DNA of 64,000 nt, taken from assembly GCA_003154195.1 (NCBI GenBank), contig PMCS01000005.1, positions 9,449-73,448 of the forward strand, given 5' to 3'. Source of the DNA: Candidatus Omnitrophota bacterium. Lineage in GTDB: Bacteria > Omnitrophota > Gorgyraeia > Duberdicusellales > 4484-171. Shown here piece after piece: positions 3,001 through 41,671 of this stretch. The position numbers were made by a program, and so were the translations under genes. Within the stretch, counting starts at the first letter, position 1. The number at the start of each line of letters is the position of its first letter. The notes beneath the pieces are model-generated. The model was not told where the DNA came from, did not search any database, and worked only from the letters and a program-made list of their open reading frames with translations.

Positions 3001-4950
3001 ATAGCCGGCGCCGCCGGTAACCAGAATCGTTTTGCCTTTACCGGGTTTATCCCTATCTTCGATCGCTTTCCTGACCCGCGCTTCGTGAGCTGATCTTTTC
3101 GCCTCAAGCGGCCGGGAAAGTTCAGCGATTGCCCAGTCAATCACCTCATTATCGTTCGGCGGAAGGGTCAGGCTCAATACCTTCAGCATGTTGGCGCGTA
3201 ACGAAGCGACGACATGTTCTTTATACTGTCGGTCTTGCGCGCTCAAACCGCTTTCCACCGGGCTGGAAGTGATTGGCGCCTCTACTGTGATATAAAATGG
3301 TTTATCGCTTCCTTCTTTTCTATGGAAAGGGCGCACTCTAACCGATATTGTTCTTTCAAAAAAGTCATAGCCAATGTCTATCGCTCCTCCCCAGCCATCT
3401 TCTGTATAACCTGCTGCCAGCAGGTTAACAGCCGGTTTGTTTATCGGCGGAGGTAATGCCGCGCCCCTGATAAAACCCGGTCCCGCTATTAGATTACGCT
3501 TTCCTAAATGACTCTGCATTGTTGCTAAAGACCTGCTGGTGCCGCGGCGATAAATTTTCAATACGCTTTCTTTTCTTATCAGGCGTTCATTCAACCGCTG
3601 CGATATATTAAATCTAACCCATTTGCCATTTTTTTGATCCTCTTCTGTAACTGTACCAATCGTACCAAAGGGTGCCGGGCTCCCCGTCACCGCAAACGCG
3701 TTATCATTCGCCGCATCTCCCGATAAAATGTCCGTTGTTATTACGTTCAGCCCTTTAGATGAATCGTGGATTTGTTCGGCTCTGGACAACACCTGTGTTT
3801 GCACCACCCCCGATGAAACAAGCGGCATCACTCCCCCCGAGAAGTATCTCCTCCTCACCTGCTTATGCGTCGCTGGGTCGGATTCTTTCTTTATATAGTC
3901 ATAGATACCCTTCTTAAAGGCTTGCGTATATAGGTTATAGATCTTCTCTTTAGCTTGTGGGTCATTAGTATCAATACCTTTTATCTTCTTCTGGTTGATA
4001 TAGTGTTTATAGAAAGATTCTTTAAACTTCTCTTTAAACCATTTAGCCAGGATGAGAGAGTAGTATATCTGTCTTAAAGTAGCAAAGTTCTTACCGGAAT
4101 TGATATCGTCGGTTATTTTAGGTACTACGACTTCACGCATTACGTCCGAAGCCACCTTGTTGATTTGTCCTGCTTTTTCATCCTTCGTCCCTCGTCCCTC
4201 GTCCTTCATTGCCCCTTCGTCCCTCGCCCCTCGTCTTTCATCCTTCGTTCCTTTCTGCAATGCGAGAAAGTCTTGTTCGAGCATTGCCTTAAGAGTAGCC
4301 TGGTTGACTACCGCCGTATTCTTATATTCATAGACTTCGGCTTTATCGGGAGCGATCCATATCTTATTGAAGGTATCTATCGGTAAATTACCGGTTCCCG
4401 GTAATTTACCGATTTGAGAATAAACCGATTGCCAGTATCGATTGCCGATAGAATTTTCTGGGTGGGTAAGGCTTGAGACTAATTGCTTAAGGACATAGTC
4501 CTGGGCTAACATATCACGTCCTACGTCGGTTGAAGCCGCGGAATCATTGATTATGCGGTCTTTTTCATATACGGATAAGTTTACCCATAAGTCGTCTTCA
4601 GGGATAGTCAGGCCGGCTAAAAAATACCGGATTAATTTTTCTGATTCTTTTTTCAACGCCTCTTGGTAACGGACAGGGCTTAGCCCTGTCCCTACATATT
4701 GCGCGTCCCAATTGCCGCTATCGATGATGAATTCTATCTGCAGCGGGTTAGCCGGGTTAAGTTTTAATCCTTTTAATATCGGGAAGGAATAGGTTGCTGA
4801 TAGTCCCAGTAACTGGGTAGGTTCCGGCAGGGTCAGGGCGGCGTGGGCGTAGTTGACGCCCAGGCTGGTACCCAGAAAAGAGAATAATACCAGCACAAGA
4901 GTGATTTTCGAGAATAACTTTCGTCTGGGTTGGGAGAAAAAGAAAATCAT
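1..4950 (-). CDS. Giant secreted multidomain protein, partial (3' end lies beyond window start). It has a signal peptide, an N-terminal ~430-aa domain paralogous to the 35784-39425 protein, and an embedded GalE-like NAD-dependent epimerase domain.
   Basis: Manual reverse-complement translation in consecutive 60-nt blocks from 4950 down to 1 gives one frame with no stop codon. The ATG is at 4948-4950 and the N-terminus is MIFFFSQPRRKLFSKITLVLVLFSFLGTSLGVNYAHA. DNA is ~85% identical to 38200-39425 across the N-terminal domain. The epimerase motifs ILVTGGAGYIGG, YGFTK (YxxxK), HYFNAAAG and RDYISVLDLA are in frame around 2200-3060. It is absent from the ORF track, presumably because it has no in-window stop. 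Confidence 0.75.
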   Translation of the reverse strand, partial: MIFFFSQPRRKLFSKITLVLVLFSFLGTSLGVNYAHAALTLPEPTQLLGLSATYSFPILKGLKLNPANPLQIEFIIDSGNWDAQYVGTGLSPVRYQEALKKESEKLIRYFLAGLTIPEDDLWVNLSVYEKDRIINDSAASTDVGRDMLAQDYVLKQLVSSLTHPENSIGNRYWQSVYSQIGKLPGTGNLPIDTFNKIWIAPDKAEVYEYKNTAVVNQATLKAMLEQDFLALQKGTKDERRGARDEGAMKDEGRGTKDEKAGQINKVASDVMREVVVPKITDDINSGKNFATLRQIYYSLILAKWFKEKFKESFYKHYINQKKIKGIDTNDPQAKEKIYNLYTQAFKKGIYDYIKKESDPATHKQVRRRYFSGGVMPLVSSGVVQTQVLSRAEQIHDSSKGLNVITTDILSGDAANDNAFAVTGSPAPFGTIGTVTEEDQKNGKWVRFNISQRLNERLIRKESVLKIYRRGTSRSLATMQSHLGKRNLIAGPGFIRGAALPPPINKPAVNLLAAGYTEDGWGGAIDIGYDFFERTISVRVRPFHRKEGSDKPFYITVEAPITSSPVESGLSAQDRQYKEHVVASLRANMLKVLSLTLPPNDNEVIDWAIAELSRPLEAKRSAHEARVRKAIEDRDKPGKGKTILVTGGAGYIGGHTIYEALLQGYDIVAVDNFVKGREEMVDFLREFAVKVGRKFTFVPLDLADRPAIDTMFREHPEIDDIIHFAAYIEIGPDALAPWQYFENNLINPLNLVEAAEKYKKINGKRMRIIPSLTAAVYDGDQPMPLTEASIKNPLSVYGFTKHWMGEVMKDSNLDAFCVHYFNAAAGMPFESMGEWHSPETHAIPRFIRLLLEGKPVQLYGKGYPTDSGTPSRDYISVLDLATAHIAGLEIEDNLPGETSTMNQHYNLATGEGLEVAPLAKKIAGVLKEVVPGIEYREEDVGPRAGDAAKLYASPGKIKDYTLRSKTAHAWELDNSDIDTIVRSAIIGHLNMLKRETVMSPKPMPESDMVKTSQKVIARLGTSRKYDGAGPRFSPEARRQITGRLFRDIKASRLQIIQGQLLERLKKQSIKITGVATDGSKLFDMLNGLAGMSQASYTYSEQDRGDAAITRTLIVARDHDIIVVREGEAEKARIAIPPYDVIPIAAQELDNVIRDLPSGQNVLSLAEAWERLSAEGAALLDKPVEQMTGQEAAALVDAYNGLETRAARLTYDAGNQRIQVNKSSSSSPNVVAGSTPATTDGSKREVDSGQRAKGLGVSASPVRIPGLPDIQEQSQGQSGGVVTFVPSRELLSGEKALLIYDKETGAVVAEARFPAKGESFYLGDRMEVAVGRNFFGQIERPGRHSWDVRFRLNGDSHRVNIFLDTDTYMNRKTGLAKYMLSITAELLGSEGPGRSKRFYLAEGEPDVTHRRSVVASPAVVKAPAEVSVGMMEEALQSFLSKERVGQRGRPETYGLLRSFSSKTSLAYTLELFRRKINDLQGRDFSLDQIQAARDSFVAAVNARTSLDYQIELIDEGSSIRVFYRDKERQPLMAVDEWVVDGVERGLSEIFGVPSGALTNPLKLLNSFRRPKKDKERIKIALRLRTGVGEAKSIIVDVFLSRPKDGKDLKVEWNSSADPKASPQELSFRNVFSTLAVTAAEPESAGSPVGLAP

Positions 4951-12702: not shown

Positions 12703-14150
12703 TAAATTACCAAAAGCCTCCATGGCGCCACGTATACGGAAAAAACTTTGCCCATTAAAATTATCCGGCTGAAAATATATTCGGGATTGCCCAGGCTCCA
12801 AAGGGGAATCTTCAGAAACAATTCATTGCCCCGGGAAATCAATTCAGCCCCGGGAATACGAAATGCCTTGCGATTGGCGTAAGCGATAACCCTCTTGTTT
12901 TTCGCCCGCAAAAATAGTTTCGGCATTTCGCTGAAATTCCGGTCCTGCCGGTAACCTAAAAGATGGATATGCGCCCATATCTGCGGCGCGACATTTTTGT
13001 AAAAAGAAATCTTCAGATACAGGAAACCGGGATCGCGGCGCAAATAAATATCCGAGATAACTTTCGAGTACAATTCTCTCGGATAACGACGGTCATTTTT
13101 AGTCAAAACGAGCTGCGGCTGGGTATAAAACAGTTCGTTCTTACGCACGAAACTTAAAAGATAGGATTTTTTGAAAGATAGCTGGCTCGTATATGCGAAA
13201 AGGGCTTTATACTTATTTTTTATTTCGTTATCCGTTAAAACTAATTTAATCCAGTTTTTATCTCCTGATTCCAAATCGGGCGGTGTCTCAAGCTCTTCGC
13301 CGGGAAAATACTGCTGGCGGCTCGGCCAATTTATTTTATGAACAAGGTACAGATAAACCACGGGGTCTTTCAACGTACGCCGTAAATCGAGCAACGCGAC
13401 GTTAAGATAAACAAAAGCGCTGCGGTGATCGGGATTAGTATCCTGGGGACTGGAAACAAAAATTTTTGTCGGCTTAAACGCGCTGAGGATATTTTTAAAA
13501 TCATTCAGAATGCTCCCGCCGATGTAAGGCGCACCGTAAGATAACGCGCTTTCGTAAGGAACCTTGTTGAGATGCGTTAGGAGGCTATGGAACGGATTTT
13601 CTTTATTCCAAAAATTCAAGAGAATGGCTTCAGTAAACCGATCCGGATAACCTAAAAATATAATGTCTCCCCCCGTAATCCCCAGAGAAGCCGTGGCGCT
13701 GACAGCTTCTCTCTGCCTTATTTTTCCTATCGTCACAAATCCGCTCCGGAATAGCGCTAATTGTTTTTTGTAAAAAAGAAAAGAAATCTCATTATAATCG
13801 CCGTTGGTAAAATATGCCACCTTAACGGCGGCTTTAGCGTTCAATGCCTTCTGGATAACGCCGCCTGAAGCGATGATTTCGTCATCCGGATGAGGGGCGA
13901 TTATCAAAACCCTATCCTGCGCGGTAAAATTTAAATCAGACTGGGCAAAGCAAGCGCTAAAAATTCCAAATAACAAATTCCAAATAACAAATAAATACCA
14001 AATTCCAATTACCGAATGGCCAAAACAGCTTCTGCTCTGGATATTGGAACTTTGGTTATTGGAATTTTCCCGCCCCTTATTATTCTGGCTTAGCGGGATC
14101 CCGCAAGAGACGGGAATTTGGGATTTGGGATTTGGGATTTGGGATTTCAT
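12702..14150 (-). CDS. LmbE/PIG-L family N-acetylglucosaminyl deacetylase-like protein with N-terminal TM helix
   Basis: VLIIAPHPDDEIIASGG motif, N-terminal hydrophobic helix. The first codons are encoded by the caaatccc tandem repeat (MKSQIPNPKSQIP). Confidence 0.7.
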   Translation of the reverse strand: MKSQIPNPKSQIPVSCGIPLSQNNKGRENSNNQSSNIQSRSCFGHSVIGIWYLFVIWNLLFGIFSACFAQSDLNFTAQDRVLIIAPHPDDEIIASGGVIQKALNAKAAVKVAYFTNGDYNEISFLFYKKQLALFRSGFVTIGKIRQREAVSATASLGITGGDIIFLGYPDRFTEAILLNFWNKENPFHSLLTHLNKVPYESALSYGAPYIGGSILNDFKNILSAFKPTKIFVSSPQDTNPDHRSAFVYLNVALLDLRRTLKDPVVYLYLVHKINWPSRQQYFPGEELETPPDLESGDKNWIKLVLTDNEIKNKYKALFAYTSQLSFKKSYLLSFVRKNELFYTQPQLVLTKNDRRYPRELYSKVISDIYLRRDPGFLYLKISFYKNVAPQIWAHIHLLGYRQDRNFSEMPKLFLRAKNKRVIAYANRKAFRIPGAELISRGNELFLKIPLWSLGNPEYIFSRIILMGKVFSVYVAPWRLLVI

Positions 14151-23009: not shown

Positions 23010-23129
23010 TATTTCCTAAAGTTACTGGATTCTTTTGCACCATCAAAAAAAACGTTAATTAACCTCGAGCAATACCAAATAATATTAAATAAAAGCAACC
23101 CGCAAGGTGCGCTTGGAGCAGGCAAAGAG

Positions 23130-23145
23130 CGGCAAATATTTGCCG
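23130..23145. promoter_or_regulatory. Perfect 16-bp palindrome CGGCAAATATTTGCCG in intergenic region
   Basis: Seen directly. A related half-site ttgccgctatttgccgcg is at 23254-23272. Confidence 0.3.
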
Positions 23146-23294
23146 CTAAAATGATTGCAAAAAACGCAGGCATACTCAAAGAGTATGTCGAGGTTCACCT
23201 AAAGGCGAAATCTCGCCTACGGCGGACTTTTTGCAACATTTGCAGCGCAAAGAGTTGCCGCTATTTGCCGCGAGCAAGCGCATTTTGCGGGTTG

Positions 23295-23894: not shown

Positions 23895-24025
23895 GTTAAA
23901 CTGGGTTAGGGTAAAGATGAGGAAGCCAGTATGGGTTATGGCTAAGGTTAAGGCTGAAAATTTGTATCAGCCATGGCCCTTGCCCTTACCCAAACCGGCC
24001 GCTTAACCCTGGCCATAGCCTAATC
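23895..24025. repeat. Palindromic intergenic repeat element family 1, copy 2
   Basis: ctgggttagggtaaagatgaggaagccagtatgggttatggctaaggttaaggctgaaaatttgtatcagcc...acccaaaccggccgcttaaccctggcc. Confidence 0.7.
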
Positions 24026-29228: not shown

Positions 29229-29519
29229 AATAAATATTTTTGCTTTGCAAAAATATTTATCTGGCAAAAAATGCTTTTCCCTAACGCATTTTTTGGGATA
29301 ATTTAGTATATCACCTATCGGTTTTTTATACAATATTTTTTGCGGTAGATTTAAGGAAGGGCTGAAAATATTTGGAAGAAAAATACTCTCATGACGCCGC
29401 CCCAGTTCGAAAAGAACGCTGAAAGCGCTCTTTTCGAACTCGCAGGGGAGGCAGTATCAATGAACCGCCATGGGAGAAATACAAAACTAAGGTTATGAAG
29501 ACGATATTGAAATCGGCTA

Positions 29520-29722
29520 AGGATAGGGTTAGGAAGCCGGTTTGATAAATACTGGGCTAAGGTAAGGGTTACGAGGCCGGTTTGGGCTAAGGTTATGGTT
29601 CGGGTTTAAATCAATATTTTTAGCCCTTGCCTTAACCCTAACCCATACTGGCATCATGGCCCTTGCCCTAACCGTTTTTTAATCCATACCGGCATCGTAA
29701 CCCTTACCTTAACCCGGTATTT
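29520..29722. repeat. Palindromic intergenic repeat element family 1, compound/inverted copy 5
   Basis: Contains arms in both orientations (gggttaggaagccggtttg and gcccttgccttaaccctaacccatactggcatcatggcccttgccctaacc). Confidence 0.6.
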
Positions 29723-33039: not shown

Positions 33040-33185
33040 AAACGACCTAGGCTAATGGCTGAAAAAGGATATCGGGGCATCAGGAAACTAGGATTTGGGT
33101 ATTGGGGAAGCAGGGAATTAGGAAATATACCCAATATCCCAGTTTCCTGATATCCAAATCCCGATATCCCGGTATCCTAATGCCC
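33040..33185. repeat. GGATTTGGG-unit palindromic element
   Basis: aggaaactaggatttgggtattggg ... cccaatatcccagtttcct inverted repeat plus gatatccaaatcccgatatccc. The same ggatttggg units recur at 14040-14150. Confidence 0.5.
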
Positions 33186-33845
33186 TTATTTGTTACGGTC
33201 CTTAGCCCTGAACGTAAACTCCTCCATATCCCTAGGCAATCTGACCTTTAAATTAACTTCGTCATGGCTCACCGGATGGACAAATTGCAAGAAACAAGCA
33301 TGCAGGGCGAGCCGCCGGAATTTAACGGCAAAATCTTTGCCGAACGCGTATTGTCGTTCGCCCAAAATAGGATTGCCTAACCCCGCCAGCTGTATCCTTA
33401 ACTGGTTTGTCCTTCCCGTAAAAGGAATCAGCTCCACAATACTGTACTCCGGAAAATCACGCAATACCTTATAATAGGTTTTCGCTAATTTAGGTTTTTC
33501 GCCGAACCGGCTGCCTTCGTTATCGATAATTTTCCCCTCGATAAACCCGCGATACTTACGCATTCTTCCGCGGACAAAAGCGATATATTTTTTCTTGATT
33601 ATACCGTCGCGAAACTGGTTCATAATTTTTTCCTGGACCTCGGGGCTTTTAGCGTAGATGATTAAACCGGTAGTCTCACGGTCAAGGCGATGGCAGGGAT
33701 AGACCTTTTCCCTAAGCCGTTCCTGCAAAAGCGAGGTCAAGGTATTCCTTTCGCCTTTCGGTGACGGCTCGACCAGAAGTTTGGCGATCTTGTTTACCAC
33801 CACCACGTACTCGTCGTTAAAAACAATGTCGAAAGGATTGTCCAT
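33186..33845 (-). CDS. RluA-family pseudouridine synthase
   Basis: HRLDRETTGLIIYAK catalytic Asp motif, and VVVNKIAKLLVEPSPK N-terminal region. Confidence 0.8.
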   Translation of the reverse strand: MDNPFDIVFNDEYVVVVNKIAKLLVEPSPKGERNTLTSLLQERLREKVYPCHRLDRETTGLIIYAKSPEVQEKIMNQFRDGIIKKKYIAFVRGRMRKYRGFIEGKIIDNEGSRFGEKPKLAKTYYKVLRDFPEYSIVELIPFTGRTNQLRIQLAGLGNPILGERQYAFGKDFAVKFRRLALHACFLQFVHPVSHDEVNLKVRLPRDMEEFTFRAKDRNK

Positions 33846-33960
33846 AAAATAGATAGACAGATGTCAGATGGTCAGATATCAGATGGTCAGATATCAGATG
33901 GTCAGATGCCAGGCAAACAGACAGTAGAGCGCATCTTGTTTCTTATCTGTCTATCTGTTT
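33846..33960. repeat. Tandem CAGATGGTCAGATAT x3 plus inverted repeat atagatagacagat/atctgtctatct
   Basis: Seen directly. Reverse-complement related units (atctgatatctg) occur on the other side of the adjacent gene at 34340-34390. Confidence 0.6.
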
Positions 33961-34349
33961 ATCTGATTATGCCCTTCAAAAACTGAAACAATAAATTGAT
34001 AAAGCATTCTACTCAATTCGTCTATTGTATCCCTTAATTGCACATAAAGCAATTTGTCGCCTAACGATTTTGTTTCAAAAAGCAAATCCAAATGCTCCTT
34101 TGTCTCCTGGTTCGATGCATAAGAACGATGCAAATAATGCAAATATTCATTTTTATAATTCCTCAAAGCGAACCCTTCCACAATCTGTGCTGATACAGAT
34201 TTTGACGATCTTCTTATTTGAGAGCCTTCTTCATATAATTCGAATTGCGGTAGAGTTAAAGACATTTTGTGAATATCGACTGCCAACTTATGCGCTTTTC
34301 CATAGATCTTCAGATCTTCCAACTTCATGCATTTCACCTCCCATCCCAA
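33951..34349 (-). CDS. Four-helix-bundle protein (23S rRNA intervening-sequence protein family, TIGR02436-like)
   Basis: LKIYGKAHKLAVDIHKMSLTLPQFELYEEGSQIRRSSKSVSAQIVEGFA...EHLDLL matches the characteristic helix 1-2 pattern of this family. Confidence 0.65.
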   Translation of the reverse strand: MGWEVKCMKLEDLKIYGKAHKLAVDIHKMSLTLPQFELYEEGSQIRRSSKSVSAQIVEGFALRNYKNEYLHYLHRSYASNQETKEHLDLLFETKSLGDKLLYVQLRDTIDELSRMLYQFIVSVFEGHNQINR

Positions 34350-34390
34350 TCTGTCATCTGTTTATCTGATATCTGCCTATCTGATATCTG
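34340..34390. repeat. ATCTGATATCTG-unit repeat, inverted partner of 33846-33960 repeats
   Basis: catctgtttatctgatatctgcctatctgatatctg. Confidence 0.55.
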
Positions 34391-34774
34391 TTAATCCGCC
34401 GCCTTATTCTTTCTAATTATTATAAACAAACCGGCAAAGGCGCCGAAAGAATTAGCCGCCTGGTCGAGCAGTTCGAAACTCCGGTAAGGAAGAAAATACT
34501 GGATGCATTCGATCGCGAAACCGAAGAAAAAACAGTAAAAAAAGGTAAACCAACGGGGGTATTTTTTGTAACTTCTTAAACGGGTATTGACTAAAATAAA
34601 CGATAACAGAAAATACATCGCGAAATGGACGATTTTGTCGGCATTAGGAAAGGAAACGGCCTTAGGGGTATGGACGGGAATGACCGATACCGTAAAGATA
34701 AAACAACTGTAGATCGCTACGGTAATCCGGGAAAACAAATATGACATAAGCCAACCAAATTTTGCATTGAACAT
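34391..34774 (-). CDS. VanZ-like family membrane protein
   Basis: Four TM segments, KIVHFAMYFLLSFIL and FGFAIECIQYFLPYRSFELLD motifs. Confidence 0.6.
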   Translation of the reverse strand: MFNAKFGWLMSYLFSRITVAIYSCFIFTVSVIPVHTPKAVSFPNADKIVHFAMYFLLSFILVNTRLRSYKKYPRWFTFFYCFFFGFAIECIQYFLPYRSFELLDQAANSFGAFAGLFIIIRKNKAAD

Positions 34775-34863: not shown

Positions 34864-35052
34864 TCAGGTCTTTTTATCGCCGCCAGCGCCGTAACGCGCC
34901 AGCGCTTTCCTTATCCGAGCAGGCACGCATAGACATCTAAGCTCATTTATCTCCTTAAGCCAGATAAGTTTATTTCTGGGAGAAATCAACATCCCCCGGC
35001 GAATTCTTTCCTCCCGGCTTTCCCAGCCAAAATCTATATTTTTTCCCTTCAT
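34864..35052 (-). CDS. Small hypothetical protein, translationally coupled to upstream nucleotidyltransferase-like gene
   Basis: 4-bp overlap with 35049-35549. Basic. No motif recognised. Confidence 0.3.
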   Translation of the reverse strand: MKGKNIDFGWESREERIRRGMLISPRNKLIWLKEINELRCLCVPARIRKALARYGAGGDKKT

Positions 35053-35549
35053 CTCTTACCTAACTTCTTAATTATTTTTAGTTCTTGCACATCAAGCAAA
35101 TCTTTCTCCCGGCCGGCAGCACGCTTCATCGCGATAAGCGCATCAATCGATGCCACCGGAATGCAACACTGCCCCGCTTCTATCTTCTTCGCGCCCCTTA
35201 ATACGGCGGTAAAACTTACCGGCGTATCCACGATAATATCAACTTCTTCATAACCGGCAGTATCTTTATAAAAATTAAACGCCTTCAAATTTTTCTCTTT
35301 TACCCAAGTATCCCTTATTTTTTTATCGGCAAAATCCAAAGGATTCACCGGCTGCTTAACATGATAACCTTTTTTTATTAATATTTTTATCGCTTTCTTC
35401 AGGTTATCCTCGTCCATCGCCAATAAAATATCTAAATCGCCGGTAGCCCGATAGCCGCCAAGCAGATTAAACGCCACGCCGCCGACCACGACAAACCTTA
35501 CCTTAGCCTTGTTGAACGCGCGCAGTATCGTTTGATAAATCATCGTCAA
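35049..35549 (-). CDS. Nucleotidyltransferase-fold protein (AbiEii/MNT-like)
   Basis: VVVGGVAFNLLGGYRATGDLDILL resembles the GG...S/T.D.D nucleotidyltransferase motif of DUF1814/AbiEii-like proteins. Confidence 0.4.
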   Translation of the reverse strand: MTMIYQTILRAFNKAKVRFVVVGGVAFNLLGGYRATGDLDILLAMDEDNLKKAIKILIKKGYHVKQPVNPLDFADKKIRDTWVKEKNLKAFNFYKDTAGYEEVDIIVDTPVSFTAVLRGAKKIEAGQCCIPVASIDALIAMKRAAGREKDLLDVQELKIIKKLGKR

Positions 35550-35619
35550 TCAGTATACCAAAAGCCGTTGCCTTGTCAAAATAAAAACCCCCGGCATTTA
35601 CGCCGGGGGATAATTAAAA

Positions 35620-35785
35620 CTTGGTTAGGGCAAGGGTAATGATGCCGGTATGGGCTAAAGACTTGGCTAGGCAAGGGCCATGATGCCAGTATGGGTTAGG
35701 GTTAGGGCTGTAAATTTGTATTAGCCCTGACCTTTGCCTTTACCCAAACGGGCTTCTTAACCCTGGCCTTTACCAATCTTTTTTC
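35620..35785. repeat. Palindromic intergenic repeat element family 1, copy 6 (with duplicated left arm)
   Basis: ggttagggcaagggtaatgatgccggtatgggctaaag + ggcaagggccatgatgccagtatgggttagggttagggctgtaaatttgtattagccctgacctttgcctttacccaaacgggcttcttaaccctggcc. Confidence 0.7.
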
Positions 35786-41514: not shown

Positions 41515-41671
41515 CTTTACGGTTTAGGTATATCCAGCACTAATTTTGCCGCGGCAAAATTAGTGCTGGATAATTCGACTACCGCCTCGCGCGGCGCCTT
41601 TCAGGCTTGCTAATTCAACTACGTCCCACCACAATACGGCGGGACAAGTTTCATTACGACGAAGTCTCATT
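41515..41671. repeat. Intergenic repeat element family 2 (17-bp-stem hairpin + TAATTCGACTACCGCCTC + CGAAGTCTCATTA), copy abutting lptG ATG
   Basis: ccagcactaattttgccgcggcaaaattagtgctgg hairpin, then ataattcgactaccgcctc ... cgaagtctcattATG. Confidence 0.6.

Follow-up and report, generated by a model that had tools for sequence, protein, structure and literature searches.

A gene for a four-helix-bundle protein of the PF05635/TIGR02436 family, located in a 64,000-nucleotide stretch of DNA from Candidatus Omnitrophota bacterium (contig PMCS01000005.1, positions 9,449 to 73,448; hereafter, the window), is enclosed by two tandem arrays of short repeats that are complementary to each other, and this layout is the normal architecture of the PF05635 subfamily to which the gene belongs rather than something special to the window locus. 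What we define here as the cassette is the whole unit of 5' array, gene and 3' array, which spans about 545 bp. This architecture is widespread and statistically robust, and no earlier description of it was found, since full-text searches, with subscription journals outside their coverage, returned no literature linking the PF05635 family to flanking inverted arrays. In our preferred interpretation, which we hold with moderate confidence, the locus is a promoter-less intercistronic cassette comparable to the intervening sequences (IVSs) of rRNA, whose two arms pair into a long stem and are kept matched by slippage and DNA-level correction.

The cassette lies on the minus strand, between a VanZ-like gene upstream (34391..34774) and a gene for an RluA-type pseudouridine synthase downstream (33186..33845), both identified by Pfam search and both on the same strand. 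Its 5' arm (34349..34396), detected by Tandem Repeats Finder (TRF) and by an inverted-repeat search, is formed by six to seven units CAGATnn(n) in sense orientation, and its 3' arm (33846..33910, with the units in 33851-33910) by eight units, which read ATCTGnnn in sense and CAGATnn(n) on the plus strand. TRF reports CAGATATCAGATGGT 3.3 times at 33858-33907 (97% matches, score 93) and ATCTGTTTATCTGAT 2.7 times at 34356-34396. The initial annotation of this DNA, made from the sequence alone, had described these flanks as repeats present three and two times; the tandem nature of the arrays is upheld, with an actual period at the locus of 7/8 nt and the unit yCAGATnn. It had also taken the two sets as reverse complements of each other, in agreement with the inverted-repeat search, which pairs 33852-33899 with 34349-34396 (48 nt, 79% complementary) and 33873-33912 with 34351-34390 (40 nt, 85% complementary).

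These arrays are not a product of chance, because clusters of CAGAT or ATCTG (at least four per 60 nt) are confined to them within the 64 kb, because phased chains of at least four GAT/ATC at 7-8 nt spacing, where the two arms have 8 and 7, occur at a mean of 0.075 per window when Markov resamples are taken, and because the alignment of one flank to the other scores 47, with a shuffle maximum of 28. The junctions with the neighbouring genes are tight. The last codon of the VanZ-like gene, GAT, together with its TAA stop (34391-34396), is in phase with the 5' array and supplies its first GAT. On the other side, about 5 nt separate the 3' array from the ATG of the RluA-like gene, and no Shine-Dalgarno sequence lies between them. 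A third, shorter stretch of this repeat (33943..33970, minus strand, sense CAGATAAACAGATAGACAGATAAG) extends across the last codons of the four-helix-bundle gene and its stop, and pairs with a partner at 33910..33924 (minus strand) as a local hairpin directly after the open reading frame (ORF).

The enclosed ORF (33951-34349, minus strand) has PF05635 as its sole Pfam match, with 85.4 bits (cut-off 33.8), and reaches 80.8 bits with TIGR02436 (cut-off 24) in a hidden Markov model search, so that its first assignment as TIGR02436-like holds both by these cut-offs and by fold. The length of the gene changes: instead of 132 amino acids from a TTG that lies within the repeat array, the gene more likely encodes 125 amino acids plus stop from the ATG at 34328 (33951..34328, minus strand), as judged from a Shine-Dalgarno sequence, GGGAGG, read at 34337..34342 (minus strand), 8 nt before this ATG, and from the public gene calls of the protein, which are also of 125 amino acids. 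The AlphaFold (AF2) monomer model, for which 26 homologues were the input, is a four-helix bundle with a predicted local distance difference test score (pLDDT) of 94.5. Its top Foldseek match is Xcc0516 (2GSC), with a template modelling (TM) score of 0.85-0.92 and a root-mean-square deviation of 1.1 A, followed by BT_0352 (2RLD). A sequence profile also matches 2RLD and 2GSC, and a single-sequence search of the PDB sequences with the window protein gave no match. The conserved motif of the PF05635/TIGR02436 family, R-x3-S-x3-N-x2-E (PMC3936711), is present as R40-SSK-S44-VSA-Q48-IV-E51, where Q replaces N, and the block SQIRRSSKS is invariant in the homologue alignment.

The wider sample comprises 80 genomic loci of homologues with 48-75% identity, in which 82 cassettes were scored, coming from about ten phyla (Omnitrophota, WOR-3, TA06, Bacteroidota, Ignavibacteriota, Planctomycetota, Verrucomicrobiota, Cloacimonadota and others, plus one metagenome-assembled genome, MAG, of Thermoplasmata). 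Seen by eye, nearly all these loci have a G-richer tandem array upstream of the gene and its complement downstream. When the upstream flank is aligned to the reverse complement of the downstream flank, allowing the last 100 nt of the ORF in the 3' arm and taking a score of at least 24 as complementary, 65 of the 82 cassettes have complementary flanks, versus 6 of 266 displaced controls. The layout is thus not special to the window locus. In 27 of these 65 cassettes the 3' arm begins within the ORF, which means that translation of the repeat gives these proteins their variable C-terminal tails. Across cassettes, an arm measures about 31 nt, and the arrays hold a median of 4.1 units, with a period of 7 in 75 of 94 arrays and of 14 in 14 more. 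In six Planctomycetota loci (L033, L035, L037, L038, L044 and L049) the 3' array lies wholly within the C-terminal coding region, and the four-helix-bundle gene and the gene after it share the sequence ATGA as overlapping stop and start. By its N-terminal sequence, the second gene resembles that of an acetolactate synthase small subunit.

The position of the cassettes relative to their neighbours is equally regular. Cassette and upstream neighbour share their direction in 42 of 43 cases, and cassette and downstream neighbour in 41 of 46; a median of 2 nt separates the upstream stop codon from the start of the 5' arm, and a median of 28 nt separates the end of the 3' arm from the next ATG. Such co-orientation and spacing characterise a module without a promoter that relies on the host operon transcript. 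Inside the window cassette no promoter-like site was found, the nearest ones being upstream of the VanZ-like gene and of a nucleotidyltransferase gene further upstream. Between the end of the 5' arm and the ATG of the cassette there is a median gap of 27 nt, and therefore the ribosome-binding site is left free, outside the stem. In locus L093 (2424-2500), where the cassette is placed between corA and a tRNA gene, tRNA-Glu (CTC) starts 30 nt past the cassette stop codon, directly after the 3' array.

A rotation-free logo of 81 arrays reads y-n-n-G(0.98)-A(0.77)-T(0.96)-n, where G and T are nearly invariant every seventh base and the spacer positions are free. Since a plain stem needs no G-A-T at fixed phase while the spacers drift, a sequence-specific reader of G-A-T every 7 nt is suggested, for which the encoded ring-forming protein would be the obvious candidate. 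Taken further, this leads to an explanation in which each arm would be an array of 4-8 G-A-T binding sites at 7-nt spacing, read by the ring protein for autoregulation or for the assembly of a ribonucleoprotein, with the complementarity of the arms being secondary. The TRAP protein, which reads GAG repeats, would be an analogy for a ring protein acting on G-A-T heptads. Apart from the fixed phase of G and T, the about 4-5 units of an arm come near the number of subunits in the pentamers formed by homologues and would suit a single ring, Xcc0516 being a pentameric ring according to the work cited in PMC4990558, and the fold homologue Avd belongs to an RNA-protein complex (8UBE). In addition, an alignment of 82 proteins has H at position 120 in 53 of 54 G-A-T cassettes, and F or Y in most of the 22 G-[G/T]-T cassettes. 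This may represent covariation between protein and repeat, but it is confounded by phylogeny and serves as a lead only. The arrangement as binding sites also leaves the second arm, which is the reverse complement of the first and matched to it at each locus, unexplained, and the genome also has gene-less arrays with units of other types. On balance, we consider it unlikely that the arrays are primarily binding sites.

The gene and both arrays were inserted as one unit, because an empty site exists in a relative and because close relatives carry the same arm type in at least five operons. The empty site is that of the metagenome contig L087, whose RluA and VanZ proteins are 64% and 38% identical to those of the window. 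Here, the two genes overlap by 23 nt, and their junction has no four-helix-bundle gene, no repeat and no hairpin; the sequence TTTTATG at the RluA start is common to the window and L087. The unit of about 540 bp that had been outlined at first is therefore supported. The proteins most similar to that of the window (70-76% identical) are encoded between tadC-like and Tad genes, between corA and tRNA-Glu, and in another pilus operon, with nAGATnn arms in each of them.

This agreement extends to other lineages, as cassettes of one protein clade are shown to keep their repeat type at different insertion sites. Those of Ignavibacteria, present in at least four contexts, all have GGATnCT units, and a clade from Bacteroidota has GGTTCAG arms at preT, acrB and other sites. 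In L056, two cassettes with GAGTTTTG and GGTTCAAG are located 1.4 kb apart, so that the unit type differs between clades even within one genome. Gene and arms are therefore the unit of inheritance and re-insertion. At the level of single loci, the spacer of the repeat is particular to each locus while both arms agree with one another, and the own 3' arm is the best partner of the 5' arm in 16 of 46 loci, where about 1 would be expected by chance, and most exceptions come from Ignavibacteria, all of which share GGATnCT units. The four-helix-bundle protein is 60-65% identical across phyla, including the archaeal MAG, whereas a metagenome scan found only three confirmed relatives of the RluA neighbour (L088 and L089 being partial). 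This difference suggests that the cassette spreads by horizontal transfer.

Arrays of this class are also found without the gene. A hairpin at 33083..33177, outside the cassette and between the RluA-like and the cyclophilin-like genes, is formed by GGGATAT/GGATTTG units followed by their complement, and overlaps an over-long ORF call of 176 amino acids for the latter gene. Another gene-less array hairpin is composed of 13961-14017 with 14038-14068 and 14107-14147, in reversed order, the C-rich AAATTCCAAATAAC array coming first and the GGATATTGGAACTT and GGGATTT arrays after it. In three syntenic WOR-3/TA06 loci, a gene-less array hairpin occupies the same intergenic site about 1.6 kb downstream of the cassette (L022 4526-4563, L052 3145-3226 and L065 4539-4651), with units such as AACGGAT and ACAGATA that resemble those of the cassette. 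In a Bacteroidota locus (L026 4269-4700), a near-identical AAATTCCAAATGAC array and its G-rich partner enclose a non-coding region of 290 nt with a stem of its own; neither this region nor the 13961-14147 element has an Rfam match. Finally, complementary octamer arrays in L010, ACTTATAA at 384-464 and TTGATAAG at 1851-1967 (score 46), flank two genes that by their sequence are presumably nuoH and nuoB, and therefore paired arrays can bracket genes other than the four-helix-bundle gene.

Such elements raise the question of whether the hairpin was there before the gene. In this explanation, heptamer-array hairpins would be ordinary components of the space between cistrons, and the gene would have landed, or survived, in one of them. 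The hairpin at 33083-33177, that of 14107-14147 with 13961-14017, and those at the syntenic WOR-3 sites agree with it, as do the about 70 convergent heptamer pairs between operon genes, 3-30 nt past the upstream stop, that have been described in other bacteria (PMC4692102). However, the empty site of L087 has no hairpin of any kind, and neither site nor genome predicts the repeat type, which goes with the protein clade. Moreover, the arrays elsewhere in the loci are mostly of another unit, with 11 of 58 in the top decile of similarity to that of the cassette, and arrays are more than 10-fold enriched per base by the gene (129 in about 24 kb, versus 187 in about 340 kb elsewhere). For these reasons, we find a pre-existing hairpin very improbable as the origin of the arms.

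The 16 same-species contigs are identical over 590 nt apart from the indel of one 15-nt unit of the 3' arm (33893-33907), missing in 5 of the 16, and this unit indel without point differences indicates that slippage is faster than point mutation. The arms are thus fast-evolving heptamer arrays, lineage-specific and varying by whole units within a species. Although the initial annotation had called them terminal inverted repeats, they are not of the transposon-like kind: they have no fixed sequence, and they come with no target duplication and no second copy in the window.

According to the preferred interpretation, the cassette, inserted exactly at the junction of the VanZ-like and RluA-like genes, operon genes that overlap in L087, would be transcribed by read-through from the host operon. 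Upon transcription, the arms would pair over about 45 bp and leave the Shine-Dalgarno sequence and the ORF in the loop of this stem, which would be the design known from RNase III-cleaved rRNA intervening sequences with a gene of this family. The stem would also juxtapose the upstream stop and the downstream start. Either RNase III would then release the module, or the terminating ribosome would melt the base of the stem and expose the downstream start, and in this way the interrupted operon, translationally coupled before the insertion as in L087, would stay functional. In agreement with this, the fold predicted for the sense strand from the VanZ stop to the RluA start contains a long-range stem that encloses the Shine-Dalgarno sequence and the ORF, both in the minimum free energy and in the centroid structures (z = -3.6), and GGGAGG is placed just inside this stem, on the loop side.

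Several observations weigh against this interpretation, or at least against its RNA part. The antisense strand folds at least as well as the sense one (z = -4.8 versus -3.6), and therefore the pairing is not demonstrably selected in the sense RNA. If selection acted on the RNA, G:U mismatches should be tolerated and A:C mismatches should not; however, in an alignment that treats all mismatches alike, no wobble bias appears, with 80 mismatches of the G:U type and 97 of the A:C type (p = 0.23), 60 and 68 in the first set, and 0 and 5 at the window locus alone. Regarding the insertion, a single empty site was found, that of L087, in a fairly distant relative, and every same-species contig with the exact RluA protein carries the cassette, so that there is no presence/absence polymorphism and no recent movement is seen. 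Lastly, the gene-less hairpins and the arrays around the nuo genes of L010 mean that arrays are not exclusive to the four-helix-bundle gene.

We thus do not claim RNA-level covariation of the arms. The lack of wobble bias, together with the folding of the antisense strand, points to a complementarity that is kept mainly by a DNA-level process, and we infer that slippage combined with template switching between the arms (quasipalindrome correction) maintains their match.

In a further alternative, the cassette as such would be a mobile DNA element, non-autonomous or self-mobilising. The arrays would be its functional ends, acting as single-stranded DNA hairpins or as the sites of a recombinase provided in trans, and the pairing of the transcript would be incidental. 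This would account for the insertion of the whole unit deduced from L087, for the repeat type that accompanies the protein clade to new sites, and for the absence of a G:U over A:C bias in arms of which both strands fold equally well. The protein identity of 60-65% across phyla, set against the few RluA relatives, hints at horizontal transfer and would fit as well. On the contrary, no target-site duplication was found at the junctions, the longest direct word shared by the 34-nt flanks being TTGTTT, away from the junctions. The cassette encodes no transposase or recombinase, and its ends are unconserved in sequence and length and vary by units within the species. Further copies of the gene or of the repeat unit are absent from the 64-kb window, no relatives of this subfamily were found in viral contigs, and the species shows no presence/absence polymorphism. 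A DNA element would not require the strong co-orientation with host transcription either, even though selection for expression could yield it. All this makes an element of this kind rather unlikely, in our opinion, as the full explanation of the locus.

The cassette offers a reproducible genomic signature for PF05635, a very large family with two crystal structures and a homologue in diversity-generating retroelements (DGRs), whose stand-alone members have no known function. This signature, a promoter-less and co-oriented cassette at stop/start junctions with complementary arrays of G-A-T heptads, joins three observations that had been made separately: the rRNA intervening sequences that bear an ORF, the insertions in the middle of operons such as the cas loci, and the heptamer arrays of Xanthomonas and cyanobacteria. 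It is also relevant for annotation, since the starts and stops adjoining a cassette run into the repeats, as exemplified by the call of 132 amino acids at the window locus.

The initial annotation saw in this gene the mobile precursor of an rRNA intervening sequence, which is an older hypothesis, attributed to Ralph & McClelland in what is cited in PMC4990558, and as a hypothesis it is still plausible. In a bolder version, stand-alone PF05635 proteins and heptamer arrays would be one system, where the ring protein would read, and perhaps help to propagate or maintain, heptad arrays of the G-A-T type, the cassette being then an autonomous selfish element that inserts into rRNA helices and at the stop/start junctions of operons. 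We regard this version as doubtful. If true, the mobile form of the rRNA intervening sequences, sought for a long time, would be the cassette, the heptamer hairpins without a gene would represent relics of it or targets in trans, and the heptameric repeats that many bacterial genomes hold in unexplained excess would be accounted for.

Regarding the surroundings of the cassette, the five neighbouring ORFs encode the pseudouridine synthase, the VanZ-like protein, an AbiEii-like nucleotidyltransferase and a cyclophilin-like protein. The nucleotidyltransferase gene (34864-35549; AbiEii/DUF6036-like, by weak Pfam matches) has a 4-nt overlap with an ORF of 62 amino acids, and both, located just upstream of the VanZ-like gene, possibly represent a toxin-antitoxin pair. 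The window contains no rRNA, and Rfam gives only tRNA-Asn.

Repeats of other kinds also occur in the window. Three copies of a dispersed palindromic intergenic element (23905-24015, 29515-29720 and 35610-35780) have GGnTAAGG / GCCGGTaTGGG-type units in the 5' arm, their complement in the 3' arm and a conserved loop, GGCTGAAAATtTGTATCAGCC; it looks like a family of this genome similar to repetitive extragenic palindromic (REP) sequences or miniature inverted-repeat transposable elements. A strong intrinsic terminator and a promoter-like site (35588-35609) stand beside the copy at 35610-35780. A perfect palindrome of 21+21 nt (41531-41572; TATCCAGCACTAATTTTGCCG / CGGCAAAATTAGTGCTGGATA) lies between two plus-strand genes, and an inverted repeat with 67-nt arms (23096-23162 / 23228-23294, 72% complementary, 65-nt spacer) follows the tRNA-Asn region on its downstream side. 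For a C-rich array of heptamers, TCCCTCG repeated seven times (4173-4250), a search within 1.5 kb gave no complementary partner.

Among the known systems, the 23S rRNA intervening sequences of Coxiella burnetii and Leptospira are a close counterpart of the window cassette, as they carry the same protein family in an ORF looped out by a stem of terminal inverted repeats (PMC4990558). In C. burnetii, the ORF (S23p/PF05635) is found in the loop of a stem formed by terminal repeats of 28 bp, which RNase III cuts in the middle (PMC4990558). As the window cassette, these sequences reside inside a host transcript, lack a promoter of their own and are thought to have spread horizontally. However, they interrupt an rRNA helix (9, 25 or 45 of the 23S rRNA), whereas the window cassette is placed between two protein-coding genes. 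The arms may differ as well, being tandem heptamers with a G-A-T core in the window and described only as complementary terminal sequences in Coxiella (PMC4990558). Contrary to the Coxiella ORF, which is decaying and apparently untranslated, the ORF of the window looks intact and conserved. Cutting by RNase III is known for the Coxiella sequence and putative for that of the window. Members of PF05635 are also encoded by the rRNA insertions of the candidate phyla radiation (bioRxiv 10.1101/2024.02.27.582315), and Zhang and Ye described genes of the family wedged between cas genes (PMC3936711).

The arms themselves have a counterpart in the arrays reported by Rehm et al. in 2015, formed by GGGAATC in Xanthomonas and by GGGGA[C/T]T in Nostoc, with a preference for four units (PMC4692102). 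These are found where two ORFs run in the same direction, a few nt past the stop of the first, and include about 70 convergent pairs per genome with the G-rich array first, some of them between groES-groEL, atpA-atpG, atpD-atpC and gltB-gltD (PMC4692102). The arms of the cassette share with them heptamers in about four units, the co-directional context, the position just past a stop and the frequent convergent pairing. One Xanthomonas array of their table lies 6 nt past bccP and overlaps the annotated start of XCC0516 (PMC4692102), which is the crystallised member of PF05635, even though Rehm et al. drew no link to the protein family. Unlike the cassette pair, which encloses a gene and whose spacers are free, most of their arrays lack a gene. 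They share a single unit sequence throughout the genome and were read as G-quadruplex formers. For the present family, we reject the G-quadruplex explanation: only 1 of 49 5' arms has at least four GGG runs, as a G-quadruplex of three tetrads would need, and the window arrays contain no GGG. The STRR (short tandemly repeated repetitive) sequences of cyanobacteria are grouped with the heptamer arrays of Xanthomonas and Nostoc.

A further parallel is provided by REP sequences and REPINs (REP doublets forming hairpins) with their REP-associated tyrosine transposases (RAYTs), which are Y1 transposases similar to those of IS200/IS605, the REPs being conserved in sequence within a genome. In both systems a gene lies between inverted copies of short repeats, and similar repeats also occur as gene-less intergenic hairpins. 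However, the RAYT gene encodes a Y1 transposase, and the cassette a four-helix bundle without a known catalytic site, flanked by repeats that vary by site. A genome-wide relation between cassette and other arrays, as that of RAYTs with REPs, was unsupported, the other arrays sharing the cassette unit weakly, with the 11 of 58 in the top decile mentioned above.

At the protein level, the comparison is with Avd, the accessory protein of the Bordetella phage DGR (4DWL, 8UBE), a more distant fold match than the crystallised members of the family (TM about 0.73-0.84). Avd has the same fold as the window protein and forms a pentameric barrel within a nucleic-acid-protein complex (PMC10053308). A DGR context for the window gene was rejected, since the scan for reverse transcriptases, limited to the neighbouring ORFs, found none among them, and no template or variable repeats are near the gene, 33700-34550 being free of long direct repeats. 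Thus, Avd and the window protein have a fold in common with only 11-14% sequence identity, and, contrary to Avd, the window gene is adjoined by neither a reverse transcriptase nor template and variable repeats.

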